Source: Alphaproteobacteria bacterium
GTDB taxonomy: Bacteria; Pseudomonadota; Alphaproteobacteria; MPNO01; VGEU01
NCBI GenBank assembly: GCA_016869145.1
Contig: VGEU01000006.1
Location: forward strand, 2,210 to 66,209
Length of the DNA: 64,000 nt
Reading direction: 5' to 3'
Shown piece after piece: positions 4,172 to 46,272 of this stretch (position 1 is the first letter of the stretch; each line of letters starts with the position of its first letter). Below the pieces are notes generated by a model, which searched no databases, had not been told where the DNA came from, and saw nothing but the letters and a program-made list of their open reading frames with translations. The position numbers were made by a program, and so were the translations under genes.

Positions 4172-4673
4172 ACCGAGAATACCTTGATCGTGCCGCGTCC
4201 CGGCCGCAATCGGGTCCGAGGAAATAGGGGTCGATCGGAGCCCGACCCATCGCTAGAGTTGCGGCCGGGTGGCGGATACGACCGAAACAAAGAAACGAGT
4301 GGCGGACAAGTCGGTGTACAGCGGTATTCGACGTGACCACGGGCCGGCCGCGCGCCGCGGGCCGGCCGGCTCATCCGGCGCCCGCGCGCAAGGCTCCGTT
4401 AACGGGGCTCGGACAGGATGGTGGCTTCGGGTCGACCGTGCGGTTGGCCGGAACGCCGGTTCGGGGCGTCCTTCCCGATCCGGCCACGGCGTAGTTGCGT
4501 AGGTGCGTATCATGTCGACGCGTCGCTCGGGCCTCATCGAGTAGGCCGCCCCTGATCCGAAGACGTTCGCCGAGCGTCTGGTCGGCCACCTCCGCTTCCT
4601 GACCGGCAAGGACCCGGGCCACGCCGAGCCGCGCGACTGGTTCATCGCGACCGCCGGCCTCGCCCGCGAGGGC

Positions 4674-7070
4674 ATGGTCAAGCACTGGTCGCCGAGCGGG
4701 CGCGAGCGCGACTGCTGGATGGGCAAGCGCGTCTACTACCTCTCGATGGAATTCCTGCCGGGCCGGCTCCTCTCCGATACGCTCCGCAATATCGGCCTCT
4801 ACGACAACGTCCGCGACGCGCTCGCGATCTACCAGGTCGACCTCGAGGCGCTCGGCGAGTTCGAGCACGATCCCGCGCTCGGCAATGGCGGCCTGGGCCG
4901 GCTCGCGGCCTGCCTCCTCGATGCGATGGCGACCGTCGGCTATTGCGGCGGCGGCTACGGCATCCGCTTCGAGTACGGCATGTTCACCCAGAAGCTCGAG
5001 AACGGGTGGCAGGTCGAGTATCCCGAGCTGTGGCTCCGCCACGGCAATCCGTGGGAGTTCCCGCGCCCCGAGGTCGCCTTCCCGATCCGCTTCAACGGCC
5101 GTGTCGTCGATTCGCGCGACAACTACGACCGTCCGATCCGGCGCTGGATCGACACCGAGGAGGTGACGGCCATCGCCTATGACGTGCCCGTCGTCGGCTA
5201 CACGGGCGAGACCGTCAACACGCTCCGCCTGTGGTCCGCGCGCGCCCGCGAGGAGTTCGATATCGTCCGTTTCAACGAGGGCGACTTCAACCGCGCGGTC
5301 GAGAGCCGGACGGCGTGGGAGAACCTCTCGCGCGTGCTCTACCCCAGCGACGCGACGCCGGCCGGGCGCGAGCTCCGATTCAAGCAGGAGTACTTCTTCG
5401 CGACCGCCTCGATCCACGACATCCTGGCGCACTATCTCCACAACCACGAGACGATCGAGACGCTCCCCGACCACGTCGCCATCCAGATCAACGACACCCA
5501 TCCCGCGATCGCGCCGGTCGAGATGATCCGCGTGCTGGTCGACGATCACCGTGTCGACTTCGACCGCGCGCTCGAGATCACCCGGCGCACCTTCGGCTAC
5601 ACCAACCACACCCTGATGCCCGAGGCGCTCGAGGTCTGGCCGGTCGCCTATTTCGAGCGCTTCCTGCCGCGCCATCTCGAGATCATCTACGAGATGAACG
5701 AGCGGCTGATCCGGGAGGCCTCGCGGACGAATCCCGGCGACTTCGCTTTCCTCGAGCGCGTCTCGATCATTGGCGAGAACGGCGAGCGCCATGTCCGCAT
5801 GGCGCATGTCGCGTTCGCCACGTCGCACCGCGTCAACGGCGTGTCGCGCGTCCACACCCGGCTCATGCAGGAGACGGTGTTCCGCGATCTCAACCGGCTC
5901 CATCCCGATCGGATCGTCAACATCACCAACGGCGTCACGCCCCGGCGCTGGATCGCCGGGTCCAATCCCGGCCTCGCCAAGATCATCACCGACCGCATCG
6001 GCGACCGCTGGCTGATGCGGCTCGACGATCTCGAGGCGATCGCGCCGCTCGCCGACGATCCGCCCTTCCGCGCCGCCTTCCGCGCCGTCAAGCACGCCAA
6101 CAAGGAAGCGCTCGCCCGCCACATCGCCGAACGCTGCGGCATCTCGATCGATCCGCACTCGCTGTTCGACGTCCACATCAAGCGGCTGCACGAGTACAAG
6201 CGCCAGCTCCTCAACGTGCTCCACGTCGTCACGCGCTACTACCGGATCGAGGCGAACCCGCAGAGCGTCCACCAGCCGCGCACGGTGATCTTTTCCGGCA
6301 AGTCGGCGCCCGGCTACGCGATGGCGAAGCTCACCATCAAGCTGATCAACGAGGTCGCCCACGTCGTCCACACCGATCCGATGGCGCGCCACCTCCTCAA
6401 GGTCGTGTTCCTGCCCAACTACAACGTGAGCCTCGCCCAGCGGGTCATCCCGGCGGCCGATCTGTCGCAGCAGATTTCGACCGCCGGCACCGAGGCCTCG
6501 GGCACCGGCAACATGAAGCTCGCCCTCAACGGCGCTCTGACCGTCTGCACGCTCGACGGCGCCAATATCGAGATCGCCGAGGCCGTCGGACGCGAGAACA
6601 TGTTCATCTTCGGGCTCTCGGTCGAGGAGATCGTGGCGCTCCGGTCCGCCGGCTACGACCCCAACACCTTCATCCACGAGAACCACGAGCTCGGCGTCGT
6701 GATCGACATGATCGCGTCCGGGCTGTTCTCACCGCGCGAGCGCGACCTGTTCCGCCCGCTCGTCGACTCGCTCCGCCACGGCGACCGCTACATGTTGTGC
6801 GCGGACTATCGCGGCTATGTCGACTCGCAGGACCGGATAGACGCGGTCCATCGCGACCGGGACGAATGGACGCGGCACGCGATCCTCAACGTCGCGCGCA
6901 TGGGCCGGATGTCGTCCGACCGCGCCATCGTCGAGTATGGGCGCGAAGTCTGGGGCCTCGGCGGCGATCCCGGCGCGCTCGCCGAGAGCGAGGCGCGCGC
7001 GATCGAGCAGCGTCGCCGCCAGGCGCAGACTGCCGGCATCCTGCATCTGGCCTCAACGACGGCGCACTGA
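4674..7070 (+). CDS. glgP: glycogen phosphorylase (GT35, PLP-dependent). The intact ORF begins at an internal Met; the authentic N-terminus (ATG ~4512) is cut off by an in-frame TAG at ~4542-4544
   Basis: 798-aa ORF with the EASGTGNMK pyridoxal-phosphate lysine motif. The upstream in-frame region (PDPKTFAERLVGHLRFLTGKDPGHAEPRDWF) aligns to the conserved phosphorylase N-terminus but follows a TAG. Confidence 0.8.
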   Translation: MVKHWSPSGRERDCWMGKRVYYLSMEFLPGRLLSDTLRNIGLYDNVRDALAIYQVDLEALGEFEHDPALGNGGLGRLAACLLDAMATVGYCGGGYGIRFEYGMFTQKLENGWQVEYPELWLRHGNPWEFPRPEVAFPIRFNGRVVDSRDNYDRPIRRWIDTEEVTAIAYDVPVVGYTGETVNTLRLWSARAREEFDIVRFNEGDFNRAVESRTAWENLSRVLYPSDATPAGRELRFKQEYFFATASIHDILAHYLHNHETIETLPDHVAIQINDTHPAIAPVEMIRVLVDDHRVDFDRALEITRRTFGYTNHTLMPEALEVWPVAYFERFLPRHLEIIYEMNERLIREASRTNPGDFAFLERVSIIGENGERHVRMAHVAFATSHRVNGVSRVHTRLMQETVFRDLNRLHPDRIVNITNGVTPRRWIAGSNPGLAKIITDRIGDRWLMRLDDLEAIAPLADDPPFRAAFRAVKHANKEALARHIAERCGISIDPHSLFDVHIKRLHEYKRQLLNVLHVVTRYYRIEANPQSVHQPRTVIFSGKSAPGYAMAKLTIKLINEVAHVVHTDPMARHLLKVVFLPNYNVSLAQRVIPAADLSQQISTAGTEASGTGNMKLALNGALTVCTLDGANIEIAEAVGRENMFIFGLSVEEIVALRSAGYDPNTFIHENHELGVVIDMIASGLFSPRERDLFRPLVDSLRHGDRYMLCADYRGYVDSQDRIDAVHRDRDEWTRHAILNVARMGRMSSDRAIVEYGREVWGLGGDPGALAESEARAIEQRRRQAQTAGILHLASTTAH

Positions 7071-7079
7071 CCGACGCGG

Positions 7080-9248
7080 CTATTCGGCCCGGGTCGCCCC
7101 GATCTCGGCCGCAACCCTCCGGACAGATTCGTCGCTCTCCAGCGTCTCGACGGCGGGCTCGAATTTCCGCCGCCAGTTCGGATGCTGATCGGTCGTTCCC
7201 GGCACATTGATCTGCGCGGTCTCGCCGAGAATGTCGCCGAGATGAACGCTCATCAGCATCGACGGCGTGCGGGCGAGGAACAGGTGGACCGCGCGCATGA
7301 CGGACGGCGTCAACGCGTCGTCCTCGGGCTCGTGCGGGCCGATCAGCGCCTCGCGCCGCAGGGCTTCGATCAGCCCGCTCCGGTCGCGCCAGCGCTGGTC
7401 CAGGATCCGCGCCGCCGTCTCCGCATCGGGAAAGAGCCCGAGCGTCGCCCGCAACACGATGTCCTCGCCCCGCCACCACGCGGCGAGCGTCGCGAGATCG
7501 TGGGTCGAGACCGTGACCGTCGCTTGTCGTGGATAGTGCGTCGGCTTCCGGTAGACCGACGGCGCCTCCTGCTCGAAGAAGAGGAGCCGATAGGAAAGGA
7601 TACCGGCGCGTGCGAGACGCTCGCGAAACCCGCGCGGGACGGTGCCGAGATCCTCGCCGACGACCATGGTCCGCGCCCGACGGCTCTCCAAGGCGACGAT
7701 GCCGGCGAGCTCGTCGAACCGATAGCGGACGTAACAGCCTTCGTCGGCGCGCGCGCCTCTCGGGATCCAGTAGAGCCGGAGAAGGCTCATCACGTGGTCG
7801 ACGCGGAGCGCGCCGGCATGGCGCATGTTGGCGCGCACCGTCTCGATGAAGGGCGCGTAGGCGGCGTCGCGAAGCGCCTGCGGCCCGTAGGGCGGCAAGC
7901 CCCAGTCCTGACCGAGGCGGTTCCAGTCGTCGGGCGGCGCCCCGAGGCTCGCCCCGGTCGCGATCAATGCACGGTTTGCCCACGTTTCTGCGCCGCCACC
8001 GTCGGCACCCAGTGCGAGATCGCGATAGAGGCCGGGCACCATGCCCGATGCGGCGGCGCACTTGGCCGCGCGCGCGAGCTGGCGGTCGGCCTGCCATTGC
8101 AGCCAGGCGTAGAACTCGACGCTCTCCGGCGCCTCCGTCGCGACCGCTCGCGCCGCGGCGGCAGCCGGGTCATGAAACGGTTCCGGCCAGGCCGGCCAGC
8201 CGCCGCGGTCGGCGAACCGCTCGGCGAGCACCTCGTAACGGCAATAGGTCTCGAGCGATGCACCACCCGAGCGTCGGAACGCCTCGAATGCGGGCCGCGC
8301 CGCCCCGTCGCCCGAGGCGCGGAACGCACGGTGGAGCGCCTCGAACAGCGGCCGCTTCAATTTCGAGACCGCCGGGTAGTCGACGAGGTCGGCCGCGCGG
8401 GCGCGTGCGAGCGTCGCGCGGAACGCGGGATCGGCGCGGATCGCATCGATCTCGGCCGCGCCCGCGAAGCCGTCGATCGCCGCGGGGTCGATGGCGGCGG
8501 TGTCGAGGAAGGCCCGATGCGAGGGCGCATAGGGCGAGGCGTGCGCCGGGTTGGCGGGAAAGCGCTGGTGCAGCGGGTTGAGGCCGACGACCGCGGCACC
8601 GAGCCGTGCGCTCGCCTCGGCGAAGGCCGCGAGATCGGAGAAATCGCCGACACCGAAGTTCCGCGCCGACCGGAGCCCATAGAGCTGGATCGAAAAGCCC
8701 CAGCGCCGCGCGCCCTCCACCAGACCCGGCGGCAGGAACGCGACCGCCGGCACGACGATGAGACGGGTCGTCGTGCCCGGATGATCGCCGAGACCGTCGA
8801 GCGCGACGTCGTGGTAGCCGAGCGGCGGCGCGACGGGGAGGACGAAGCGCCGGGTCTCGTGGCGGATACCATCGATGCGCCGCGCGGCGATGACCGGAAG
8901 GCTATCGACCCGGACCGAGCCCGATCGCGTCTCGCCCGTCTCGGCCCGGAGCGTCCACGACAGGACGACGCCGCTCCGCGTGGCCGCCAGCGTCAGCGGC
9001 ACCGAGACGGCGCCCGCCACATCCTCGACCGCCATGACGACCGGCGGCAATACGCGATGCCAGCGGCGCGCGATAAGGCGTCGCCGGCTCGCCTCGACCG
9101 CCGCGGGCGTGTCGATCGGAAGGCCGAGGGCCGCCATGACGGCCGCGACGACCTCGGGCACGGCGTGGCGACGCCCGCCCCAGGCATCGCGATAGGCAGC
9201 GCGCACGCCGGCGCGGCGGATGAGCGGCGCTGTCGGGAACCCGGTCAT
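7080..9248 (-). CDS. malQ: 4-alpha-glucanotransferase (amylomaltase)
   Basis: ORF 7080..9545. Internal Met ([10 protein letters not shown]) at 9248 overlaps the glgX stop (ATGA). GH77 family sequence (FSIQLYGLRS...GVGDFSDL...LNPLH). Confidence 0.8.
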   Translation of the reverse strand: MTGFPTAPLIRRAGVRAAYRDAWGGRRHAVPEVVAAVMAALGLPIDTPAAVEASRRRLIARRWHRVLPPVVMAVEDVAGAVSVPLTLAATRSGVVLSWTLRAETGETRSGSVRVDSLPVIAARRIDGIRHETRRFVLPVAPPLGYHDVALDGLGDHPGTTTRLIVVPAVAFLPPGLVEGARRWGFSIQLYGLRSARNFGVGDFSDLAAFAEASARLGAAVVGLNPLHQRFPANPAHASPYAPSHRAFLDTAAIDPAAIDGFAGAAEIDAIRADPAFRATLARARAADLVDYPAVSKLKRPLFEALHRAFRASGDGAARPAFEAFRRSGGASLETYCRYEVLAERFADRGGWPAWPEPFHDPAAAAARAVATEAPESVEFYAWLQWQADRQLARAAKCAAASGMVPGLYRDLALGADGGGAETWANRALIATGASLGAPPDDWNRLGQDWGLPPYGPQALRDAAYAPFIETVRANMRHAGALRVDHVMSLLRLYWIPRGARADEGCYVRYRFDELAGIVALESRRARTMVVGEDLGTVPRGFRERLARAGILSYRLLFFEQEAPSVYRKPTHYPRQATVTVSTHDLATLAAWWRGEDIVLRATLGLFPDAETAARILDQRWRDRSGLIEALRREALIGPHEPEDDALTPSVMRAVHLFLARTPSMLMSVHLGDILGETAQINVPGTTDQHPNWRRKFEPAVETLESDESVRRVAAEIGATRAE

Positions 9249-11380
9249 GGCACGCGCATCGCCTGGACCGGCCGCTGCGCGAGAACCACCATGCTCGACG
9301 CGGTCACAGTCATCGATCCGCGCACCGCTACGGGCACCCCGTCGACGACGCCGGTCGCGGTGTCGAGGACCGTGACCCAGTCGTGATCCGCGCCGGGCGC
9401 CGGCAGCGTCCAGACGATCGCCGTCTCCGCGGCGTTCATGAGGAAGAGATAGGTCTCGTCGATGCGGCCCGGCGCCGTTTCGTCCGCATAGGCGCCCTCT
9501 CCCGAAAGCACGAACCCGAGCGCGCGCGTCTCCGCCGCGTGCCAATCGGCGACCTTCATCGTCCGCCCCGACGGATGCAGCCAGCGGACGTCATGGTCGG
9601 CCGGATCGGCCGTTTCCCCCCCGCGCAGGAAGCGTGAGCGACGAAAGCTCGGATGACGGCGACGCAGCTCGATCAAGGCGTGGACGAAGCGGGCGAGATC
9701 GGCGAAGCCCGGCGACGGCTCGGTCCAATCGATCCAGCCGGTCGCGTTGTCCTGGCAATAGGCGTTGTTGTTGCCGCCTTGGCTCCGGCCGCGCTCGTCG
9801 CCGGCGAGGAGCATCGGCGTTCCCTGCGCGAGGAGAAGCGTGGCGAGCATGTTGCGCATGTCGCGGAGACGCGCGGCGCGGATCACCGGATCGGGGCTTT
9901 CGCCTTCGACGCCGTGGTTGCGGCTGTGATTGGCGTCGGTGCCGTCGCGGTTGTCCTCGCCGTTCGCCTCGTTGTGCTTGGTCGCGTGGCTCACGAGATC
10001 GCGCAACGTAAACCCGTCATGTGCGGTGACGAAGTTGACGCTCGACCACGGCCGCCGTCCGGCGCGGCGGAAGAGGTCGCTCGATCCTGCGATGCGCGAG
10101 GCGAGCGGCCCGACGAGCCCCGGCTCGCCCATCCAGAAGCGACGCACCGTATCGCGGAACTGGTCGTTCCACTCCGACCAGCCGGGCGGGAAGCCGCCGA
10201 GCCGGTAGCCGCCGAGGCCCAAATCCCACTGCTCCGCGATCATCTTGACCCGACCGAGGACAGGATCCTGGGCGAGCGCCTGGAAGAAGGCCGCGCGGGG
10301 ATCGAACGCGCCGCGTTCATCGCGCGCGAGCGCCGGCGCGAGATCGAAGCGGAAGCCGTCGACGCCGATGGTTGCGGCCCAGTAGCGGAGCGAATCGAGG
10401 ACGAGCTGCATGACACGCGGATGCGACACGTCGAGCGTATTGCCGCATCCCGTGACGTCGACATGGCGCGACCGGTCGGCGGGGTCGAGGCGGTAATAGA
10501 CCGCGTTGTCGAGACCGCGGAACGAAAGGGTCGGCCCGTGCTCGTTGCCCTCACCGGTGTGGTTGAACACGACATCGAGGATGACCTCGATCCCGGCGGC
10601 GTGCAGGAGCGCGACGAGGGCGCGGAACTCCTCGCTATCGCCGCTCGCGAGAAAACGTGGCGCGATCGCCTGGAACGCGATCGGGTTGTAGCCCCAGTAG
10701 TTGCGGAGCCCGCGGCCGACGAGATGGTGCTCGTCGATGAAGGCCTGCACCGGCATCAGCTCGATCGCGTTGATCCCGAGCGCGACGAGATAGTCGATCA
10801 CGGCCGGCGTCGCGAGCCCCGCCGCGGTGCCGCGCAGTCGCGGCGTCACCGCCGGGTGAAGCCGCGTGAACCCGGCGAGATGCATCTCATAGATCACGCT
10901 CTCCGACCACGGAACACGCGGACGCGCCTGTCCGCTGTCATCCGAGGCCGCGACGATGCGGCACTTGGGCACGACCGGCGCGCTGTCGCGCCGGTCGAAG
11001 GACTTCGTGCCGTCGGGATGCCCGACCACGAACCCGTAAAGGGCGTCGTCCCAGACGAAGGAGCCGACGAGCGCCCTGGCGTAGGGATCGATGAGGAGCT
11101 TGTGATGGTTGAACCGATGGCCGGCGGCGGGATCGCAGGGTCCGTGGGCGCGGAGCCCGTAGAGCATGCCGGGGCGGAGGTCCGGGAAATAGCCGTGCCA
11201 GACCTGGTCGGTGTATTCGGCGAGGACGGTGCGCGACCGTTCGACCATGCCGGTCTCGTCGAAGGTGCAGAGCTCGACGCGCAGGGCGTTCTCGGAGAAG
11301 ACCGCGACGTTGACGCCGCGGCCGTCCCACGTCGCGCCGAGCGGCGCGGGCTCGCCGGCGAGAACCCGGAGCGCCGTCAT
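9245..11380 (-). CDS. glgX: glycogen debranching enzyme GlgX (GH13)
   Basis: ORF 9245..11851. Start [30 protein letters not shown] matches the E. coli GlgX N-terminus. ATG at 11380 overlaps the glgB stop (ATGA). Confidence 0.85.
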
Positions 11381-13557
11381 CCCGGCCGCCCAATGTCGCC
11401 TGAGCCCGGCGACAGGAAGACGACCGCGGCGAGCGGCGGCAAGGTGAGCCGGACCGACCAGGCGTGGCCGTGGCAAGCCACCGCCTCGGCCGCGACGCCG
11501 CCCGCGTTCCCGACCCCGCTGCCGCCATAGATCACGGCATCGCTGTTGAGACGCTCGCGGTAGAAGCCCACCTCTGGCACGCCGATACGATAGTCGCGCC
11601 GGACGACCGGGGTGAAATTGCACGCGACGACGACGAAGGCGCGATGATCGTCGCCGCGCCGGATATAGGCGACGACCGAGCTCTCGGCGTCGGTGCAGTC
11701 GATCCAGGCGAAGCCGTGCGGCTCGTGATCGGCCTGATGGAGCGCCGGCAATCCGCGGTAGATCGCATTGAGATCGCGCACGAGATCGCGCACGCCCCTG
11801 TGCATCGGATCGTCGAGGAGCTGCCAGTCGAGACCGATGTCGTGGTTCCATTCGCGCACCTGCGCGAACTCACCGCCCATGAACAGGAGCTTCTTGCCGG
11901 GCTGCGTGTAGAGGAACGTGTAGTATAGACGGAGGTTCGCGAATTTCTGCCAGCGGTCGCCCGGCATCTTCGACCATAGCGAGCCCTTGCCGTGCGCCAC
12001 CTCGTCGTGCGAGAGCGGCAGAACGAAATTCTCGTTGAACGCGTAGAGGAGCCCGAAGGTCAGCTTGTCGTGATGCCAGCGGCGGTGGATCGGGTCCTCG
12101 CGCATATAGGCGAGCGTGTCGTACATCCAACCCATGTTCCACTTGAAGCCGAAGCCGAGACCGCCGGCATGCACCGGGCGCGACACCATCGGCCACGCGG
12201 TCGATTCCTCGGCGATCGTCACGAGCCCCTCGTTGCGGCCGTAGACAAGCGTGTTGAGCCGGCGCAGAAAGGCGATCGCCTCGAGGTTCTCGTTGCCGCC
12301 GTAGCGGTTCGCGATCCACGATCCCGGCTCGCGCGAATAGTCGAGATAGAGCATGGACGCGACGGCATCGACGCGGAGACCGTCGATGTGGAAGACGTCG
12401 GCCCAGTAGAGCGCGTTGGCGACAAGTTAGTTGGCGACCTCGTTGCGGCCGAAATTGTAGATCAGCGTGTTCCAGTCCATGTGGCGGCCCTGGCGCGGGT
12501 CGGCATGCTCGTAGAGATGCGTGCCGTCGAACCAGCCGAGCCCGTGCGGATCGCTCGGGAAATGGCCCGGCTCCCAGTCGACGATGATGCCGATCCCGGC
12601 ATCGTGGAACCGATCGACCAGTGCGCGGAAATCGTCGGGCGAGCCGAACCGGCTCGTCGGGGCGAACAGCCCGATCGGCTGATAGCCCCACGAGCCGTCG
12701 AACGGATGCTCGGCGACGTAGGGCACGAGCTCGTCGGCGAGCTCGCCGTACCAGAGAGGGCGTCCGCCTTCGTCGAGCCGTCGCCGCCAAGAACCGAGAT
12801 GGACCTCGTAGATCGCCATCGGCGACCGCCGCGGATCGTTGCCCGCGCGATGCGCCCGCCACGCCGCATCGCGCCAGATGTAGCGGGGCGGGTCGGTCAC
12901 GATGGCCGCGTTGCCGGGCGGACGCTCGAAGAAGAGCCCGCACGGGTCGGCCTTGAGCGGCAGGAGTGCCCCGTCGCGGCCCTTGATCTCGAATTTGTAG
13001 AGCGTGCCGGCGCCGGCCCCGGGGAGCAATATCTCCCACACGCCGTTCCGGTTCCGCATCGGGTTGACGCGACCGTCCCAGCGATTGAAGTCGCCGACAA
13101 CGCTGACCCGTCGCGCGTTCGGCGCCCAGACCGCGACCGCCGTGCCCACGACGCCGGCGACCTCGACCACGCGCGCGCCGAGCGTCTCGTAGAGGCGGAG
13201 ATGGTTGCCCTCGGCGATCAGATGGACGTCGAGCTCGCCGAGCACCGGCGGGAAGCGGTAGGGGGCGTCGCGCTCGACGGCGCCGTTGCCGTAGTCGATG
13301 TGGAGCCGATAGGGGATCGGCCACACACGCGCATCGATCGGGCCGGCGAAGAACCCCGTCTCGTGGCTGAGGCGAAGATCGCCGAGGCTCACGCCGGTCT
13401 CGTCGATCACCGCGACCGAGCGGGCGTCGGGCTCGAACACCCGCACCGCGACGGTGCCGTCGGGAGCGCGATGCGGACCGAGGATGGCGAACGGGTCACC
13501 GTGTTCGCCGGCGACCAGGGCCGCGATAGAATCGGCTGACGGGAGCGATGCGGACAC
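11377..13557 (-). pseudogene. glgB: 1,4-alpha-glucan branching enzyme GlgB, interrupted by an in-frame TAA at 12427-12429
   Basis: Two same-frame minus ORFs (12427..13557 and 11377..12354) with 24 in-frame codons between them. The read-through gives [42 protein letters not shown], colinear with GlgB across its catalytic core. Confidence 0.8.
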
Positions 13558-13569
13558 CGCGGCTACCGG

Positions 13570-15264
13570 CTAGCGCAGATAGGCTTCGGTCGCGTAGCGG
13601 CGCATCATGCGCTGGCTGTTGAAGTAGGCGGGGATCTTGCTGATCGACTCTTTCATCATGAAGACCCATCCCGCCCGATCGGCGTGGAACTTGGGAAGAA
13701 CCACGGCATCGAGCTTGTCATAGAGCGAGACCGCGTGTTCGGCGGGGGAATCGCCCGCCGCGCCGACCGCCCAGCCGGTGCGGCCCTCGATCCACGCCTC
13801 CATCCACCAGCCATCGAGGACACTGAGATTGAGGACGCCATTCAACGCCGCCTTCATGCCGCTCGTGCCCGAGGCCTCGAGCGGCGGCATCGGCGTATTG
13901 AGCCAGACGTCCGCGCCTGCGACCAGAAGCTTCGCCATCGCCATGTCGTAGCCGGGGAGGAAGACGATCGGGATGGTGCCCTGGAGCGCGCGAATCGTCG
14001 CGTGGATCTCCTCGATCAAGCGTTTGCCCTGCTCGTCGCGCGGATGCGCCTTGCCGGCGAGAACGACCTGGAACGGGTGGCGGCGACGGATCGCCTTGAG
14101 CCGGGCGAGATCGCTGAACAGGAGATCGGGGCGCTTGTAGCCGGTCATCCGGCGCGCCAATCCGATGATGGGCTGATCGAGCGCGAAGCCGAGGCCGGTC
14201 GCGGTCCGGACATGGTCGATCAGCCGCCGCTTGGCCTCGACATGCGCCGACCATATGGCAGCATCATCGAGGAGATCGGCCCGCATCAACGACTCAGGTT
14301 CGTGCACCCAGTTCGGGAAGTGGCGATCGAACAGCGCGGCGAAGCTCGGCGCCGCCCAGGTCCCGACGTGGATGCCGTTGGTGATGGCGCGGATGCGGTA
14401 GCCCGGATAGAGCCGGTGCGCCGTGCGCGCGTGCTGCTCGGCGACACCATTGACGTAACCCGAGAGCGATAGAGCGAGCTGAGTCATGTTACACCGCTCG
14501 GCTCCGGCCAGAAGCCGCAGCTGATCGATCTCGATCAGGCCGCCGAGCACACGCGCGACGAGCTCGTACGGGAACTGGTCGTGCGCGGAAACGACCGGCG
14601 TGTGCGTCGTGAAGATGCACCGCGCCTTCACGTGCGCGACATCATAGGCGCAGCCGTTTGCCGCGAGATCGGTCGAGGGCAGCCGCTCGCGGCGCAAGAG
14701 CTCCACCGCGAGCAACGCGGCATGCCCTTCGTTCAGATGGTAGGTCCCGACCTCGAAACCGAGCGCGCGAAACAGCCGGACGCCGCCGATCCCGAGAACC
14801 GCCTCTTGCTTCAGACGGTAGCCCTCGTCACGGCCATAGAGGCAGTGCGTGATCGTTCGGTCCTCGGCAGCATTGTCCTCTACGTCGGTGTCGAGGAGGA
14901 GCACCGGCACCGCCTCGCCGCTGCCGTCCTTGAGAAGATGGAGCCAGGCCCGCACCCATACCGGACGGCCGTCGAGATCGACGGTGATCTTGGCCCCGAG
15001 CGGCGCCGCCCACGCGGCCGGATCCCAGGGATCGTGGCCGTGGACCTGAAGTCCGGCAGCGTCGATCTCCTGACGCAGATAGCCGAACCGGCTGACCAGC
15101 GTGACGAACACCACCGGAAGACCGAGATCGAGACACGAGCGCGCGGTATCGCCGGCGAGCACGCTGAGACCGCCGCTATAGGTGTGGATCTCGGGATGCA
15201 ACGCGATCTCCATCGTGAAATAGGCGATGCGCGTGCGCGCGACGATCGCGTCGAAGGGCGTCAC
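13570..15264 (-). CDS. alpha-glucan family phosphorylase (short GT35 maltodextrin/glycogen phosphorylase type)
   Basis: 564-aa ORF. Contains the SGTSGMKAALNG PLP motif. Immediately upstream of glgB on the same strand. Confidence 0.8.
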   Translation of the reverse strand: MTPFDAIVARTRIAYFTMEIALHPEIHTYSGGLSVLAGDTARSCLDLGLPVVFVTLVSRFGYLRQEIDAAGLQVHGHDPWDPAAWAAPLGAKITVDLDGRPVWVRAWLHLLKDGSGEAVPVLLLDTDVEDNAAEDRTITHCLYGRDEGYRLKQEAVLGIGGVRLFRALGFEVGTYHLNEGHAALLAVELLRRERLPSTDLAANGCAYDVAHVKARCIFTTHTPVVSAHDQFPYELVARVLGGLIEIDQLRLLAGAERCNMTQLALSLSGYVNGVAEQHARTAHRLYPGYRIRAITNGIHVGTWAAPSFAALFDRHFPNWVHEPESLMRADLLDDAAIWSAHVEAKRRLIDHVRTATGLGFALDQPIIGLARRMTGYKRPDLLFSDLARLKAIRRRHPFQVVLAGKAHPRDEQGKRLIEEIHATIRALQGTIPIVFLPGYDMAMAKLLVAGADVWLNTPMPPLEASGTSGMKAALNGVLNLSVLDGWWMEAWIEGRTGWAVGAAGDSPAEHAVSLYDKLDAVVLPKFHADRAGWVFMMKESISKIPAYFNSQRMMRRYATEAYLR

Positions 15265-15469
15265 GGTACCGTCTCTACGGAGGTGGGGCGGTCATTCTTG
15301 ATCCCGATCAACTGTCGCGCCGGCGCTTGGCTCGATCGCGCGAGCCTAAAGTCACACGGCGGTCATCGCGCCTGATGTACGTTAAGGACTCGTAAAGCAA
15401 ACCTGTTGCAGAAAGACGAAACAGCGCCGGTCCGCGCACACCGCGCGGCCGCCATTCGGGGATCGGCCC

Positions 15470-16972
15470 GTGCGCACACTCTTCGTCTCGTCGGAGATCT
15501 ATCCGCTCGCCAAGACCGGCGGTCTCGCCGACGTCAGCGCCGCGCTCCCCGCCGCCCTCGCCGGGCAATGCACCGACATGCGGCTGTTGCTGCCGAGCTA
15601 TGTCCCGGCGCTCGACCAGGCCCGGTTGACTGGGCGCGATGTCGATCTCGGCGAGATTCTGGGGTTCGGACCCGTGCGTCTCCTCGGCGCGCGCACGCCC
15701 GACAGCGACCTGCCGCTCTGGCTCGTCGACTGCCCGGCACTCTTCCGGCGCGACGGCACGCCCTATCAGCAGGCGAACGGGGCCGACTGGCCGGACAATC
15801 ATCTCCGCTTCGCGTTGTTCGCCCATGCCGCGGCGCGGCTCGCGCTCGATCGCGCCGGCCAGGACTGGCGGCCGGACGTGCTCCATCTCAACGACTGGCA
15901 GACCGGGCTCGTGCCCGCCATCCTCGCGGCCCAGGCGCGACCGCGCCCGCGCACGCTCCTCACCATCCACAATGTCGCGTTCCAGGGGGATTTCCCCGGA
16001 GGCGTCTTCCCCCGGCTCGGTCTCGCGCCCTGGCTCTACAGCCCCGACGGGATCGAGTTCTACGGTCAGGTCTCCTTCCTCAAGGCCGGCATCCGGTTCG
16101 CCGACAAGTTGACGACGGTCAGCCCGACCTATGCGCGCGAGATCCTGACTCCCAAGCGCGGCTGCGGCCTCGACGGCGTCCTCGGAACGCGCGCGCGCGA
16201 TCTCGTCGGCATCCTCAACGGCGTCGACTACAGTGTCTGGTCGCCGACGCACGGGCTGAACCTCGCCGCGCGCTTCGGTCCGCAGGATCTCGTCGGCAAA
16301 GAGGCGTGCAAGGCGTCCCTCCAGCGCGAGCTCGGCCTCGAGACGTCCGAACGGGCTCCACTCCTCGTCTTCGTCAACCGGCTCACCGAGCAGAAGATGG
16401 CCGATGTCCTGCCCGACGCGGTCGCCTCGATCTGCCGCCGTGGTGGCCAGCTTGCCGTTCTCGGTCGCGGCGATCCCGGCATCGAGGCGCGGGTGCGCGC
16501 GATGGGTCGCGAACAGCCCGGACGGGTCGCGGTCCGCATCGGCTATGACGAGCCCTCCGCGCGCCGGATGAAGGCCGGTGGCGACTTCTCGCTCGTGCCG
16601 TCGCGGTTCGAGCCCTGCGGCCTGACCCAGCTCTACGCCATGCGCTATGGCGCGGTGCCGATCGTGAGCCGCGTCGGCGGGCTCTCCGATACGGTCGTCG
16701 ACACCGACGACACCACCGTCTCGACCGACACGGCGACCGGTGTCGTGTTCGACGCGGTCGATCTCTCCGGCCTTCTCGGCGCGATCGACCGAGCCTTCGC
16801 CCTGTTCGAGAGCGACGAGACCCTGCGACAGGTCCGCCGCCGCGGCATGACGGTCGATTTCGGCTGGAGCCGCTCGGCGGTGCGCTATCGCGAACTCTAT
16901 GAACTCCTCGCCGGCACGTCGGATCGAGCCCCCGAAGGACGCGCACCGTCGATCGCCGACGCCGCCGCCTGA
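15470..16972 (+). CDS. glgA: glycogen synthase (ADP-glucose type, GT5)
   Basis: 500 aa. N-terminal SSEIYPLAKTGGLADV motif. Divergent from the minus-strand glycogen operon. Confidence 0.88.
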   Translation: MRTLFVSSEIYPLAKTGGLADVSAALPAALAGQCTDMRLLLPSYVPALDQARLTGRDVDLGEILGFGPVRLLGARTPDSDLPLWLVDCPALFRRDGTPYQQANGADWPDNHLRFALFAHAAARLALDRAGQDWRPDVLHLNDWQTGLVPAILAAQARPRPRTLLTIHNVAFQGDFPGGVFPRLGLAPWLYSPDGIEFYGQVSFLKAGIRFADKLTTVSPTYAREILTPKRGCGLDGVLGTRARDLVGILNGVDYSVWSPTHGLNLAARFGPQDLVGKEACKASLQRELGLETSERAPLLVFVNRLTEQKMADVLPDAVASICRRGGQLAVLGRGDPGIEARVRAMGREQPGRVAVRIGYDEPSARRMKAGGDFSLVPSRFEPCGLTQLYAMRYGAVPIVSRVGGLSDTVVDTDDTTVSTDTATGVVFDAVDLSGLLGAIDRAFALFESDETLRQVRRRGMTVDFGWSRSAVRYRELYELLAGTSDRAPEGRAPSIADAAA

Positions 16973-20213: not shown

Positions 20214-20437
20214 TCCCCTCTCGCGGCGCCATCGTTCACACTACCACTATAGGGCGAGGTTGGCCCGTCGTCACAGGGTTCGGGGCATGGCCCGTGCCCA
20301 CGACGCAGCCACTCTGCCGATCGGCGATGCACCGGCGCTTCGGCGCCGGGATTCCGATTGACCGTGCGGAGGCGCGCAACCATGCTCGCCCCCGGTGCTG
20401 GTCATCGAGACGTCGCACCTGTGGGGGAGACCGTGTC

Positions 20438-21505
20438 ATGACCATCCGAAAACTCGGACGCGCGCTCGCCGTTGTCGGGATCGGTATCGCGGCGGCGATG
20501 GGATCAGCGGCGGCGCAGACACCGAAATACACCTGGAAGCTGACCACCTTCGTGCCCGAAGGAACCAGCACCTACCGCGACTACATCCAGGTCTTCATCG
20601 ACAACGTCCACGCGGTCACCGAGGGCGAGGTCCGCATCCAGGGCTTCGGGGTCGGCGTCATCGCGGGCTTCGCCGACAGCTGGAAGGCGGTCCAGCAGGG
20701 CACCGCCGACATCGCCTACACCTATCCCGGCTTCGCGCTCAACATCGACCCGGCCAATACGCTCCTCGCCGGCTTTCCCGGCGGCATGACGTCGGACGCC
20801 TTGATGCACTGGGCCTACCAGGCCGACGGCTACAAGCTGTGGCAGGAGTTCCGCCGCCAGACCATGGGGCTCAAGTCGATCCTGACCGGCACGATCCCGA
20901 CGGAGGTGTTTCTCCACTCCCACAAGAAGGTCGAGACGGCCGAGGATCTGAAGGGCATGAAGATCCGGACCGCCGGCGCCTGGGCCGACATCCTGAAGGC
21001 GTTCGGCGCGACACCGACGATTATCGCGCCGTCCGACATCTTCTCGGCCCTCGAGCGCAAGGTGATCGACGGAACGGAGTTCATCACGCCGGCCTCGAAT
21101 ATCTCGCAGGGCTATCACCGCATCGCCCGCTACATCATCGTGCCCGGTGCGCACGCGCCGTCCGGATTCCACGAGGTCGCTTGGAAGGCCGACGTCTGGG
21201 ACGCGCTGCCCAAGAAGCTCCAGGATCAGATCGAGATCGCCGGCAAGCTGTCCGGCTTCGACAGCTTCCTCCGCGTCGGCATGAACGACATCGCGGCGAT
21301 CAAGGAAATGAAGAAGGGCCGCAACGAGTGGGTTTCGCTCAAACCCGAGCTCCTCACGCAGATCCGCGAAGAAGGCCGGAAGTGGGCGGCCGCCAAGTCC
21401 AAGGAGCAGGCCGACAAGGGCAATGCGTGGATGGAGCGGATCAGCAAGTCCTATTTCGCCTTCATGGACGAATGGGAGGCGAACGCCGAGTACCGCATGA
21501 AGTAA
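20438..21505 (+). CDS. dctP: TRAP transporter substrate-binding protein (DctP family), paralog 1
   Basis: ATG at 20438 preceded by GGGGGAGA. Signal peptide then AAQTPKYTWKLTTFVPEGTSTYRDY. Family-level call. Confidence 0.85.
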   Translation: MTIRKLGRALAVVGIGIAAAMGSAAAQTPKYTWKLTTFVPEGTSTYRDYIQVFIDNVHAVTEGEVRIQGFGVGVIAGFADSWKAVQQGTADIAYTYPGFALNIDPANTLLAGFPGGMTSDALMHWAYQADGYKLWQEFRRQTMGLKSILTGTIPTEVFLHSHKKVETAEDLKGMKIRTAGAWADILKAFGATPTIIAPSDIFSALERKVIDGTEFITPASNISQGYHRIARYIIVPGAHAPSGFHEVAWKADVWDALPKKLQDQIEIAGKLSGFDSFLRVGMNDIAAIKEMKKGRNEWVSLKPELLTQIREEGRKWAAAKSKEQADKGNAWMERISKSYFAFMDEWEANAEYRMK

Positions 21506-37627: not shown

Positions 37628-37810
37628 CTATTTCCGCACGGCGACGAAATTGCCGTCGTCGTCGCGCGTGAGGAGATCGGCCGCGCGGAGCTCGCCCCAG
37701 GCGTAGAGGAACGTGCGCCACGGCACCGCGCGGTGGGCGTCGACGATCTCGTCGAACTGCTGCGGGCGGGCGGTAATCTCGGCGAGGAGCGTCGTCGCGA
37801 GCGGGCTCAT
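37628..37810 (-). CDS. hypothetical small protein (60 aa) translationally coupled to UbiD-family decarboxylase
   Basis: ATG overlaps the UbiD stop (ATGA). Sequence MSPLATTLLAEITARPQQFDEIVDAHRAVPWRTFLYAWGELRAADLLTRDDDGNFVAVRK, no Cys. Confidence 0.45.
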   Translation of the reverse strand: MSPLATTLLAEITARPQQFDEIVDAHRAVPWRTFLYAWGELRAADLLTRDDDGNFVAVRK

Positions 37811-39168
37811 AGATAGTCCTCCAGCTTCACGCGGTCCTTGCCGTAGGTCTTGATGCGCCGGTAGAGCTTCTTCGGCACGCCTTCGGGGATCGTCGCATCG
37901 ATCCCCATCTTGGCCGTCGTCGGCAGCCCGCCTTTGCCGAGCTCCCACGACTTGATCGACGGGTCGATGTGCTTGCCGCGCGCGCCCGACAGGATGATCA
38001 CGTCGCGGTCGGCCTGGACGCGGAACGTCATCGCCCACTCGAGATCGTCGGGATTGTGGATGTCGATGTCGTCGTCGGTGACGATGACGTGCTTGACCTC
38101 GGCGACCGAAAGAAGCGCCAGCACCGCGTTCTTGCCCTCGCCGGGGCGCTTCTTGATCGAGGCGACGAGCGACCAGTAGCCGCAGCCGCCGACCGGCGCG
38201 CGGATCGCGACCGGCTCGACGCTCGCGATGCGGAGCGCCTGGAGCCCGGCCGCCTCCGTCACCGGGGCCGCCAGCCAATCGTTCTCCCACGGCATCTGCA
38301 GGAGATAGAAGATCGGGTTCTTCCGGTGCGTGATGCACTTGAGGCGGAAGATCGGGTTCCACTTCACATCGCCCGAGATCTGGCTGAACTCGCCGAACGG
38401 CCCCTCGTCCGCCGTCCAGCCGATCGGCAGGAGCTCGCCCTCGAGCACGAGCTCGGCATCGGCCGGCACCTCGAGATCGACGGTCTTGCATTTCACCAGC
38501 GCGACCGGCGCGCCGTGCAACCCGCCCGCGATCGAATATTCCGACTGGTTGATCGGCGCCTTGTAGGACGCCGCCAGCATGTCCTTCGGGTGCACGCCGA
38601 TGCAGACCGCGATCTCGAGCGGTTTCCCCTTGTCGAGCGCGCGCTGGTAGTAGAACCGCATGTCCGACGGCGAGACGAGATCGATGCCGGTTTCCTTCGG
38701 CGTGCGGTACATCATGCGATACGAGCCGACATTGACGCCGTAGTCGGGGTCCTTCGAGACCACGAACGTGCCGCCGATATAGGGCCCGCCGTCGAAGAGG
38801 TGCATCAGCGGATAAGGCAGCCGGGTGAGATCGGCCGCCTCGCCCGTGTGCACAACCTCCTGGCACGGCCCGCTCGCCACCATCACGGGCTCGATCGGTC
38901 GCATCAGGCCGCGCTCGCAGGCCGCGCCGACGTCGTTCTCGGTCGAGCCCATCGCGATGGCGAGGCGCTTTCGCGACGACACGAGCGCACCCGCGAGGGT
39001 CCAGTCGGGATATTCCTTGATGGTCTCGAAGAACGCCGCCTTGGGCGTCTGCGCCATCAGGCCCGAGATGTCGCGGACGTCGACGGGCTTCCTGATGCGC
39101 AACAGCTCGCCGGCCTCCTCGAGCGCGCCCAGAAAGTCGCGAAAGCTCTGTTTTCCGGTGTTGTTCAT
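37807..39168 (-). CDS. UbiD-family (prFMN-dependent) aromatic acid decarboxylase
   Basis: 453 aa. UbiD family sequence throughout. Confidence 0.8.
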   Translation of the reverse strand: MNNTGKQSFRDFLGALEEAGELLRIRKPVDVRDISGLMAQTPKAAFFETIKEYPDWTLAGALVSSRKRLAIAMGSTENDVGAACERGLMRPIEPVMVASGPCQEVVHTGEAADLTRLPYPLMHLFDGGPYIGGTFVVSKDPDYGVNVGSYRMMYRTPKETGIDLVSPSDMRFYYQRALDKGKPLEIAVCIGVHPKDMLAASYKAPINQSEYSIAGGLHGAPVALVKCKTVDLEVPADAELVLEGELLPIGWTADEGPFGEFSQISGDVKWNPIFRLKCITHRKNPIFYLLQMPWENDWLAAPVTEAAGLQALRIASVEPVAIRAPVGGCGYWSLVASIKKRPGEGKNAVLALLSVAEVKHVIVTDDDIDIHNPDDLEWAMTFRVQADRDVIILSGARGKHIDPSIKSWELGKGGLPTTAKMGIDATIPEGVPKKLYRRIKTYGKDRVKLEDYL

Positions 39169-43269: not shown

Positions 43270-44118
43270 ATGACCGAGCCGAAGTTCAAGCGGGGCGAGC
43301 GGGTGAAGGACAAGATCGTGCTGGTCACCGGCGCCGGCTCGATCGGGCCCGGCTGGGGCAACGGCAAGGCGGCCGCCGTCCTCTATGGCCGCGAGGGGGG
43401 CCGGGTCTTCTGCGTCGATCGCGCCCTCGCCGCGGCCGAGGAAACCATGGCCATCATCGAGCGCGAGGGCGGCATCGCCGCAGCGCACGCCGCCGACGTC
43501 ATGAAGTCAGCCGACGTCAAGGCGATGGTCGATGCCTGCATCGCCCGCTTCGGCCGCGTCGACATCCTGCACAACAATGTCGGCGGGTCCGGGCCGGGCA
43601 ACACGCTCGCCGATACCGAGGAAGACGACTGGGATGCCGTGATGGCCCGCAACGTCAAGTCCGCCTATATGTGCTGCCGTGCCGTGCTGCCGCACATGGA
43701 GAAGCAGGGCGGCGGCGCGATCGTCAACGTCTCCTCCATCGTCGGCATCCGCCACGCGGGCTTCCACACCATGGCCTACTCGGCCTCGAAGGGTGCGCTC
43801 AACCAGTTCACCCAGAACATCGCCGTCCAGCTCGCGCCGAAGAACATCCGCGCCAATTGCGTGGCGCCGGGGCTGATCGACACGCCGTTCATCCATCGCG
43901 AGATCAACGGCGTGCCGGGCTACAAGCGGCGCGGCTTTTCCTCGGTCGATGAGTACCGCCACTCGCGCGATCACGCGATCCCGGCCGGCCGATCGGGCAC
44001 CGGCTGGGACATCGCCTTCGCATCGCTCTTCCTCGCCTCCGACGAGGCGTCCTACGTCACAGGCCAGCTCCTGACCGTCGATGGCGGCCTCACGAGCTCG
44101 GTCGGCAAGATCGACTGA
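43270..44118 (+). CDS. SDR-family oxidoreductase
   Basis: 282 aa. VLVTGAGSIGPG motif. Confidence 0.75.
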   Translation: MTEPKFKRGERVKDKIVLVTGAGSIGPGWGNGKAAAVLYGREGGRVFCVDRALAAAEETMAIIEREGGIAAAHAADVMKSADVKAMVDACIARFGRVDILHNNVGGSGPGNTLADTEEDDWDAVMARNVKSAYMCCRAVLPHMEKQGGGAIVNVSSIVGIRHAGFHTMAYSASKGALNQFTQNIAVQLAPKNIRANCVAPGLIDTPFIHREINGVPGYKRRGFSSVDEYRHSRDHAIPAGRSGTGWDIAFASLFLASDEASYVTGQLLTVDGGLTSSVGKID

Positions 44119-45476
44119 TGGCCCTTCTCGCGATCCATAACGCGCTCCTCGTCCTCGCCGGGGGCGAACGCCACGGCGGTGTCGTCGTCGGCGACGACGG
44201 ACGGATCGAGGCGGTCCTCGACGGCGCGCGCACCGCCTCGGCGGCAACCGTCGTCGATGCGCACGGGCGGCTTCTGTTCCCGGGTTTCGTCGACGCCCAT
44301 GTCCACATGCGCGAGCCCGGCTACACCCAGAAGGAGGACTTCACCTCGGGCACGCTCGCCGCGGCCGCCGGCGGCGTGACGACCGTCCTCTGCATGCCGA
44401 ACACGCGCCCCTCCATCACGGACTTCCCCGGGCTCGAGAACGCACGGCGGGCGGCGGAGGCGCGCGCCGCGGTCGATTTCGGCTTCCAGGCCGGGATCAC
44501 GCGCGGCAACCTCACCGACCTCGCGGGGCTTTGGAGCGCAGGTGTCACCTCGTTCGAGGCGTTCATGGCCGATGTGCCGGACGACGACCGGCTCGACACG
44601 GCCGAGCACCTGCGCGCCGCGCTCGCCGAGGTCGCGCGCTGCGATGCGATCGTCGGCGTCTATTGCGGCGCGCAGTCGGTCATCGCCGCCGAGCGCACGC
44701 GCCTCCAGCGAATCGGGCGGAACGATGTCCACGCCTTCGCCGAGGCACGGCCGGCCCTCAACGAGGTCGCCGGGCTCGCCCTCCTGCTCGAGATCGCCGC
44801 CGCGACCGGCGCGCGGATCGTCGTCCGCCAGGTGTCGAGCGGCCGCGGCGCCGCGCTCATCCGGCGCGCCAAGGCCGATGCGCTCTGCCGCCTGATCGCG
44901 GCCGAGGTGACGCCGCATCACCTCCTCCTCGATCGGAGCGCACTCGACCGGCACGGCACCGCGGCGCAGATGCTGCCGCCGCTCCGCACGCCGGCCGACA
45001 ATGCCGCCCTCCTCGCCGGCCTCGGCGACGGGACGCTCGATTTCGTCGCGAGCGACCACGCACCACATGCGCCGGCCGAGAAGGACCGTGCCGATGCGTG
45101 GTCGGCGGCGAGCGGCACGCCCGGCCTCGACACCCTAGTCCCCGCCGTCCTCCATTGCGCCCGCACCGCGCGGCTCACCTGGCCTCTTGTGGCCGAGATC
45201 CTCGCGCACCGACCGGCGGCGCTGTTCGGCCTCGACAAGCGCAAGGGACGCATCGCGGTCGGGCTCGACGGCGACCTCGTGCTGGTCGATCCCGATGCGA
45301 CACGAACGGTCGAGCGGGCGATGATCCGCTCGCGCGCCGGCCGCTCGGCCTTCGAGGGGACGACGCTGGTCGGCTGGCCCGTCCTCACCGTGCTCCGCGG
45401 CCACGTCGTCGCGGAGAGCGGCCGGCCGGTCCTCGGCCATCTGCGCGGGCGGCTCGTCATCCGCAACGCCGCCTGA
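44118..45476 (+). CDS. type I dihydroorotase-like cyclic amidohydrolase (DHOase/hydantoinase/allantoinase family)
   Basis: 452 aa. DAHVHMREPG...GGVTTVLCMPNT motifs. TGATG coupling with the upstream SDR. Confidence 0.75.
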   Translation: MALLAIHNALLVLAGGERHGGVVVGDDGRIEAVLDGARTASAATVVDAHGRLLFPGFVDAHVHMREPGYTQKEDFTSGTLAAAAGGVTTVLCMPNTRPSITDFPGLENARRAAEARAAVDFGFQAGITRGNLTDLAGLWSAGVTSFEAFMADVPDDDRLDTAEHLRAALAEVARCDAIVGVYCGAQSVIAAERTRLQRIGRNDVHAFAEARPALNEVAGLALLLEIAAATGARIVVRQVSSGRGAALIRRAKADALCRLIAAEVTPHHLLLDRSALDRHGTAAQMLPPLRTPADNAALLAGLGDGTLDFVASDHAPHAPAEKDRADAWSAASGTPGLDTLVPAVLHCARTARLTWPLVAEILAHRPAALFGLDKRKGRIAVGLDGDLVLVDPDATRTVERAMIRSRAGRSAFEGTTLVGWPVLTVLRGHVVAESGRPVLGHLRGRLVIRNAA

Positions 45477-45490
45477 ACAGCGAGGGCGCC

Positions 45491-46261
45491 ATGGCGCAGC
45501 AACCCGGCAAGATGACCTATATCCCGCCCGCACACGGCGCGGCGAGCGTGCTCGGCGAGAACGGCCGGATCGGGGTGATCGTGCCGGCCAACAACTCGGT
45601 GCTGGAGCCCGAGCTGTGGGCGCGGCTGCCGCCGGGCGTCGCGCTCTACGCGACCCGCATCCTCGCCCGCGGCAACCTCACGCGCGAGGCGGTGGTCGCG
45701 ATGGAGAAGTCCGTCGACCGCGCGGTCGACGAGCTGGTCGCGACGATGGTCGATGTCATCGCCTATGCCGACATGGTGACGACCTTCGTCATGGAGGACG
45801 GCTGGAACGAGAAGAAGACCGAGGCGATCGCGCGCCACGCCGGCGTGCCGTGCGTGTCGGCCTGGACGGCGCTCCGCGACGCGCTCGCCGCGCTCGAGGT
45901 CAAGAGGTTCGCGCTCCTCACGCCCTATCCGAGGCCGATCCACGCGCTGTGCCGCCCGTTCTTCGAGCACAAGGGCTTCACGCTGAGCGGCGAGGCGACC
46001 CTCGACATCCTCGCCATGACCGACGTGCCCAAAGTATCGGTCGAACGGGTGCGCGAGGCGGTCGAGGCGATCGACCGCCGCGAGGCGCAGGCGATCGTCG
46101 CGCTGGCGACCGATCTCCCGACATTCGCCGCGATCGCGATGCTGGAACGCCGCTTCGCGATCCCCGTCCTCACGTCGAACCAGACGCTTCTGTGGCGGGC
46201 GCTCCGCGCCGTCGGCTACAAGGGCGGCGTCGTTGGGCTCGGCGGCCTCTTCTCCGTGTAA
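45491..46261 (+). CDS. Asp/Glu/hydantoin racemase-family protein (maleate isomerase / arylmalonate decarboxylase / hydantoin racemase-like)
   Basis: Internal ATG (MAQQPGKMTYIPP) in ORF 44531..46261. 256 aa. Confidence 0.6.
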   Translation: MAQQPGKMTYIPPAHGAASVLGENGRIGVIVPANNSVLEPELWARLPPGVALYATRILARGNLTREAVVAMEKSVDRAVDELVATMVDVIAYADMVTTFVMEDGWNEKKTEAIARHAGVPCVSAWTALRDALAALEVKRFALLTPYPRPIHALCRPFFEHKGFTLSGEATLDILAMTDVPKVSVERVREAVEAIDRREAQAIVALATDLPTFAAIAMLERRFAIPVLTSNQTLLWRALRAVGYKGGVVGLGGLFSV

Positions 46262-46272
46262 GGACCACGCCC

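Follow-up and report, generated by a model that had tools for sequence, protein, structure and literature searches.

A probable pseudogene of glycogen branching enzyme in an alphaproteobacterium from Lake Tanganyika

The glgB gene described here is very probably a genuine, and probably recent, chromosomal pseudogene of a GH13 branching enzyme in a Lake Tanganyika alphaproteobacterium. Its sequence shows lesions of at least three classes that are predicted to be disabling: a nonsense codon of the TAC-to-TAA type, a 39-nt deletion, and radical substitutions at invariant positions. It is an ordinary dead gene, the outcome of an already known kind of event, and no new mechanism is involved. Positions are given throughout in the coordinates of the window, i.e. 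the whole stretch of 64,000 nt that was analysed, and the locus with its stop codon is laid out as follows.

11377..13566, minus strand: glgB pseudogene (GH13 glycogen branching enzyme), the entire frame colinear with GlgB
12427..12429, minus strand: ochre codon TAA in glgB, replacing a conserved F/Y at residue 380 of the read-through numbering
12355..12426, minus strand: the 24 sense codons of glgB from the stop to the next in-frame start (ATG 12354..12352), including the nucleophile Asp

The minus strand from 12440 to 12420 reads ...GTC GCC AAC TAA CTT GTC GCC..., with the TAA at 12429..12427, and this codon splits glgB into two minus-strand ORFs, 12427..13557 (376 aa, GTG start) and 11377..12354 (325 aa, ATG start). 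The two lie in one frame and are 72 nt (24 sense codons) apart, as the first-pass annotation had stated, and the read-through peptide is exactly the one quoted there. The colinearity with GlgB that it claimed is borne out by the joined translation, which scores 934.7 bits (E 2.4e-281) against the NCBIfam GlgB equivalog NF003811; with a curated cut-off of 741 bits, this is far beyond chance. The domain architecture expected of GlgB is recovered from the fragments by Pfam, which places GlgB_N and CBM48 on the N-terminal ORF and Alpha-amylase_C on the C-terminal ORF, the catalytic-domain model PF00128 being unreported for either fragment alone. An alignment was built with the best 120 homologues from a 5.8-billion-protein collection, to which the joined translation is 61-68% identical; the column of the stop holds F in 67 sequences, Y in 52 and T in 1, and the residue opposite the TAA in the Cyanothece branching enzyme 5gqw is F434. 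The annotation was thus right to place the ochre codon at a conserved F/Y, and TAC to TAA is a single transversion.

Most of the conserved GlgB motifs and all three catalytic acids are kept in the read-through frame, namely D400 (GAT, 12369..12367), E453 and D521; in GH13 enzymes the nucleophile Asp is found on strand beta4, the Glu on beta5 and the other Asp of the triad on beta7 (PMC11239784). The nucleophile, which belongs to the motif GLRVDAV, falls between the TAA and ATG 12354, an interval that contains no in-frame ATG, GTG or TTG. An uninterrupted frame for a single polypeptide is therefore not available: the TAA breaks it, and the next start is already past the nucleophile. Translation from the normal start would end at the TAA and yield a fragment of 376-379 aa, made up of the N-domain, CBM48 and about one third of the barrel and devoid of catalytic residues; a restart at ATG 12354 would give a product without the nucleophile. 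Because neither fragment would be catalytic, we infer that no branching activity arises from the glgB locus.

The single in-frame ochre codon described by the first-pass annotation is present, but it is not the sole lesion in the gene, since a 13-codon deletion and four substitutions at invariant sites are found besides it.

12712..12720, minus strand: junction of a 13-codon (39-nt) in-frame deletion in glgB, between LVPYV and AEHPF; a gap against all 120 homologues
12571..12573, minus strand: V332E in conserved region I of glgB, DWVPGHF to DWEPGHF (codon GAG); V in 120/120 homologues
13266..13264, minus strand: D101A in glgB; D invariant in the 120 homologues
13137..13135, minus strand: F144V in glgB; F invariant in the 120 homologues
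13029..13027, minus strand: F180L in glgB; F invariant in the 120 homologues

Alignment with the solved structure 5gqw shows the same 13-residue gap. Of the positions lost, four (G, H, E and P) are invariant in 120/120 homologues. In an AlphaFold model of P0001, which is the closest glgB homologue and not the window's own product, the deleted segment corresponds to the end of helix 272-286 together with strand 290-294, the latter coming second in the catalytic barrel, next after strand 252-257. The region known as CSR-VI is strand beta2 of GH13 (PMC11239784), and the position and pattern of the deleted motif suggest that it is CSR-VI. A complete (beta/alpha)8 barrel, with beta2 and conserved region VI, would thus not be encoded even by the read-through frame, from which these 13 residues are missing.

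Nor are the family-invariant residues all retained, as D101A, F144V, F180L and V332E attest. These are 4 substitutions in 189 otherwise invariant columns, where the other sequences have a median of 0 and a maximum of 3; taken together with the deletion, glgB departs from the strictly invariant columns by 4 substitutions plus 4 deleted positions, against that maximum of 3 in the others. Control proteins encoded on the same contig show no such changes (GlgX, 0/136 invariant columns; GlgP, 0/196). When the threshold is relaxed to 97% conservation, the numbers of unusual residues are 6 for GlgB, 6 for GlgX and 10 for GlgP, all three in the upper tail; because the GlgB excess at this threshold is not above that of GlgX or GlgP, part of the glgB signal reflects the isolation of the lineage. 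The relaxed selection or loss of function proposed in the first-pass annotation is, for glgB itself, strengthened by the beta2 deletion and by the four substitutions.

The source of the window is a metagenome-assembled alphaproteobacterium from Lake Tanganyika, a free-living planktonic freshwater organism that most likely belongs to Rhodospirillales. Its MAG contig of 68.9 kb (68,927 nt; BioProject PRJNA523022, proteins MBM3485524-MBM3485576) carries the lesioned glgB, and so do contigs from IMG and Logan. The IMG contig, Ga0194131_10005542 of 3300020193 (18.1 kb), is 100% identical at the nucleotide level and covers the stop, the deletion and the amber codon of glgP discussed below; the Logan contig SRR7990526_105020 (9.6 kb), likewise at 100% nucleotide identity, covers the glgB stop and deletion. 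Both glgB fragments are gene-called on the former and the N-terminal fragment on the latter. A set of 24 Lake Tanganyika metagenomes, to which IMG 3300020193, 3300020200 and 3300020197 belong, was sequenced on Illumina HiSeq (2x150) and assembled with metaSPAdes sample by sample (PMC8245535). The proteins deposited at NCBI run from MBM3485524 (HrpB), MBM3485525 (GlgP), MBM3485526 (MalQ) and MBM3485527 (GlgX) to MBM3485528 (short phosphorylase) and MBM3485529 (GlgA); no GlgB accession stands between MBM3485527 and MBM3485528, which is what would be expected if the NCBI pipeline took glgB for a pseudogene. Two features of a unitary pseudogene are present: homology to a functional family with at least one disabling lesion and, from the identity of the assembled contigs, a lesion that is real in the organism.

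The genes around glgB that bear on the fate of the pathway are the following.

13570..15264, minus strand: alpha-glucan family phosphorylase of the TIGR02094 type, 564 aa, intact (486.9 bits, cut-off 191.7; MBM3485528)
9245..11380, minus strand: glgX (debranching enzyme), intact (TIGR02100, 952.1 bits, positions 2-687 of 688)
7080..9248, minus strand: malQ (4-alpha-glucanotransferase), intact; 4-nt overlap between its start and the glgX stop
15470..16972, plus strand: glgA (glycogen synthase), intact (NF001899, 588 bits, positions 1-476 of 478; MBM3485529)
4512..7070, plus strand: glgP (GT35 glycogen phosphorylase), with TAG at 4542-4544 as codon 11 of the ancestral frame

The operon on the minus strand is ordered short phosphorylase, glgB, glgX, malQ, with glgA divergent and glgP convergent. 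A gap of 12 nt separates the short phosphorylase from the downstream glgB, with which it shares its frame, and the ATG of glgX overlaps the glgB stop by 4 nt. With the exception of glgB and glgP, every gene of the glg cluster has its full length and comfortably exceeds the cut-off of its family; as these neighbours are intact, no decay of the glycogen pathway as a whole has taken place. Elsewhere in the window, the genes (for TRAP transporters, amidohydrolases, a UbiD decarboxylase, monooxygenases and others) give full-length domain matches, and no further pseudogene is evident in the window because the tally of ORFs agrees with the run of NCBI accessions. Three other same-frame ORF pairs were considered as interrupted genes and rejected, each consisting of two different genes: 18843/19290 (a dioxygenase and an unknown), 31758/32631 (DctM and an SDR) and 35548/36886 (an amidase and an unknown). 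A scan for promoters and terminators over 9000-15600 returned nothing useful.

The amber codon reported in glgP by the first-pass annotation is real. The beginning of the gene, MSTRRSGLIE followed by the stop, is homologous to MLTRSTGLFDD of P0288, the 841-aa GlgP of the closest relative (contig L091), and 114/119 GlgP homologues begin upstream of the amber column; for these reasons we take ATG 4512 as the ancestral start and the amber as codon 11. The N-terminal stretch that contains the amber is variable and precedes the first conserved block (L..HL....GKD...RDW). The gene has no other lesion: its match to the TIGR02093 model spans positions 2-803 of 804 (1075.6 bits), and none of its 196 invariant columns is changed. 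The next canonical start after the amber is ATG 4674, from which IMG annotates a protein of 798 aa, while NCBI annotates 830 aa from CTG 4578 (MBM3485525); glgP may restart downstream of the amber.

Relatives of this lineage are distant. The best identities in the search of 5.8 billion proteins are 67-68% for GlgB, 64% for GlgX and 74% for GlgP, and a scan of genome contigs for glgB gave a best identity of 62% among the matches listed. The arrangement glgB-glgX-malQ is common in species-representative genomes of Rhodospirillales, e.g. Terasakiella (L003) and Magnetospirillum (L007). The closest syntenic contig, L091 (IMG 3300015615), encodes proteins 61-75% identical to those of the window and holds hrpB, glgP, malQ, glgX, glgA and a methyltransferase arranged as in the window; glgB and the short phosphorylase are absent between its glgA and glgX. 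That this relative has long kept glgA, glgX, malQ and glgP intact with no glgB at the locus suggests that this copy of glgB is dispensable in the clade, and the gene content suggests, as the simplest reason, that the clade may encode another branching enzyme elsewhere in the genome.

Two of the alternatives raised by the first-pass annotation would leave the organism with a working GlgB, and neither fits the data. A sequencing artefact, in which an intact glgB is obscured by a TAA and a deletion that are consensus errors, might be suspected from the source, a short-read metagenome assembly with no isolate, and from the fact that contigs of other assemblies break within the region, at 12187 and 15902, where no repeats explaining the breaks were found. 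However, the separately assembled IMG 3300020193 has the identical sequence at the TAA and deletion of glgB and at the TAG of glgP, and the glgB TAA and deletion are identical again in the independent Logan assembly of SRR7990526; the recurrence of the lesions in contigs assembled at 100% identity from independent samples, and by a second assembler, makes an artefact very unlikely, and we reject it. Random consensus error, moreover, does not give three kinds of lesion in one gene, and some 50 other genes of the window are clean. It is highly improbable, too, that read-through or a suppressor tRNA produces a full-length functional GlgB, attractive as this may seem with a frame that is otherwise open, a catalytic triad that is intact and a second gene of the cluster, glgP, likewise bearing a premature stop. 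The suppressor background finds no support: both codons serve as ordinary terminators, TAA for the DctP gene (20294..21505) and TAG for at least eight genes of the window, among them the phosphorylase just upstream of glgB, so that nothing points to suppression. The premature stops of glgB and glgP differ from each other (TAA and TAG), the 64,000-nt window contains neither tRNA genes nor Rfam elements, and 0/120 homologues are interrupted, a combination that matches neither programmed read-through nor stop reassignment; a read-through product would, in any case, still be without the second barrel strand, and its conserved region I would contain V332E. We give next to no credence to a split gene whose 376-aa and 325-aa polypeptides assemble into an active enzyme. 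Both ORFs are long, both have kept a GC3 of 0.87-0.88, and both were gene-called by IMG, but a two-piece GlgB is excluded because the nucleophile Asp (12369..12367) is in neither ORF product; none of the 120 homologues is split, and the beta2 deletion would remain.

A different question is whether the dead glgB belongs to a wider loss, with the lineage abandoning glycogen cycling and glgB and glgP as its first casualties. The first-pass annotation read the two stops in this way; both are real, but the loss of glycogen cycling is not supported, given that glgA, glgX, malQ and the second phosphorylase are intact. We regard this reading as unlikely, though it has some weight: of about 54 genes, the two that bear premature stops both belong to the six-gene glg cluster, an outcome whose chance with two random lesions is estimated, post hoc, at about 0.01-0.04; the closest syntenic relative is without glgB at the locus; and partial as well as complete glg losses are common in bacteria (PMC4301808). 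Against it stand the full length and high family scores of glgA, glgX, malQ and the short phosphorylase, the absence of any change at invariant positions of glgX, and a glgP that is undamaged save for a codon-11 stop in its variable N-terminus and may restart downstream. The long retention of the other four genes by L091 argues instead for a branching enzyme elsewhere. There is only a slim chance that alpha-glucan metabolism has been remodelled, with the classical branching enzyme and the GT35 phosphorylase switched off and glgA, glgX, malQ and a newly recruited TIGR02094-type phosphorylase kept for storing or processing mainly linear or short maltodextrin-like glucans in place of glycogen, or that a beta2-deleted GlgB is read through and serves a changed, non-canonical function.

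The reading that we prefer is that of a pseudogene, and probably a young one. Over about 726 codons the frame is interrupted by one stop, against about 15 that a random sequence of equal composition would have, and its third-position GC of 0.87-0.88 is that of the neighbouring genes; on both grounds the inactivation appears recent on an evolutionary scale. The lesion would be tolerated if this copy is dispensable, either because the genome encodes another branching enzyme at some other locus or because the synthesis of branched glycogen is being abandoned. For practical purposes, annotation of the MAG and metabolic reconstruction should not score the glgB locus as a branching enzyme, the IMG ORFs (376 and 325 aa) are pieces of a single dead gene, and inferences about glycogen storage in the host hinge on whether the genome has a further branching enzyme at another locus. 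The case also illustrates that one visible stop can hide further lesions, and that these decide between a pseudogene and an error. Its biological weight is small: it adds one case, from an uncultured freshwater alphaproteobacterium, to the lineage-specific inactivations of glycogen genes.

Compared with functional GH13 (subfamily 9) branching enzymes, e.g. those of Cyanothece (5gqw), E. coli (1m7x) and M. tuberculosis (3k1d), the window copy has the same order of domains (GlgB_N, CBM48, barrel and C-domain), and it is colinear with 5gqw over about 710 residues (780 bits); it differs from them in the TAA at the F/Y position, in the 13 missing residues, which include the second barrel strand, and in V332E and three further changes at invariant sites. 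The window resembles the glgB-glgX-malQ operons of Rhodospirillales in gene order and in having glgP nearby, whereas those relatives have an intact glgB, or none in the case of L091, and the glgB of the window is broken; a short TIGR02094-type phosphorylase directly upstream of glgB is found only in the window lineage when it is set against the relatives compared. Losses of glg genes have been surveyed in Gammaproteobacteria (PMC4301808, where a hypothesis of Henrissat et al. 2002 is cited). Unlike the cases treated there, the host here is a free-living planktonic freshwater organism, known from metagenomes only, that shows no sign of a parasitic or symbiotic lifestyle or of general genome decay, given that the remaining genes of the window appear intact; what it has in common with them is the pattern itself, in which one gene of the cluster is inactivated and the others are kept, in a lineage-specific manner.

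Damage to glgP is confined to its N-terminus: an amber codon occupies codon 11 of the ancestral frame, and beyond it the gene carries no damage. The ancestral ATG at 4512 is preceded by AGGTG, 6 nt upstream on the plus strand. The database annotations place the start at different positions, NCBI at CTG 4578 (a rare start; product 830 aa) and IMG at ATG 4674 (product 798 aa). A second, short phosphorylase gene shares the reading frame of glgB and precedes it by 12 nt.

4542-4544, plus strand: amber codon (TAG) of glgP
13570-15264, minus strand: alpha-glucan phosphorylase of the TIGR02094 type, short (564 aa)

This short enzyme may take over the role of the classical GlgP, which is damaged. None of 80 related glgB loci has a short TIGR02094-type phosphorylase directly upstream in such an arrangement.

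Seven or more samples or runs contain the organism at 100% nucleotide identity (window 43341-47476; loci L082-L086), namely IMG 3300020193, 3300020197 and 3300020200, SRR7990526, SRR7052762, SRR7053297 and ERZ27247963; its population appears to be very homogeneous. Contigs from IMG 3300020193 and from the Logan assembly of SRR7053297 share an exact end point at 15902, which falls in the part of glgA that encodes the conserved HLNDWQTG motif, and the Logan SRR7990526 contig stops at 12187, within the C-terminal part of glgB. No repeat that would account for these ends was found in the window; the ends may stem from k-mers common to other taxa or from a co-occurring variant.

The region from 17000 to 64000 is densely packed with catabolic genes, all of which appear intact.

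20294, 22726, 34512 (DctP genes) and 24316, 32631 (DctM genes): three TRAP transporter sets
37807..39168: UbiD-family decarboxylase (its cluster has one member named 2,5-furandicarboxylate decarboxylase)
within 17000-64000: several amidohydrolases and amidases
within 17000-64000: luciferase-like monooxygenases
within 17000-64000: extradiol dioxygenase
within 17000-64000: arylmalonate-decarboxylase-like gene

The closest syntenic relative (IMG 3300015615 contig Ga0183872_10171760, 7500-22157) contains neither glgB nor the short phosphorylase at this locus; its glgX-malQ and glgA are divergent and only 163 nt apart, and a PAS/GAF histidine kinase gene is inserted with malQ on one side and glgP on the other. 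The most similar GlgB, P0001 (68% identical; ENA ERZ27254885 k141_753968), is encoded in the cluster glgE, treS/mak, glgB, glgX, treZ, which is a GlgE-pathway context, in contrast to the classical glgB-glgX-malQ operon.
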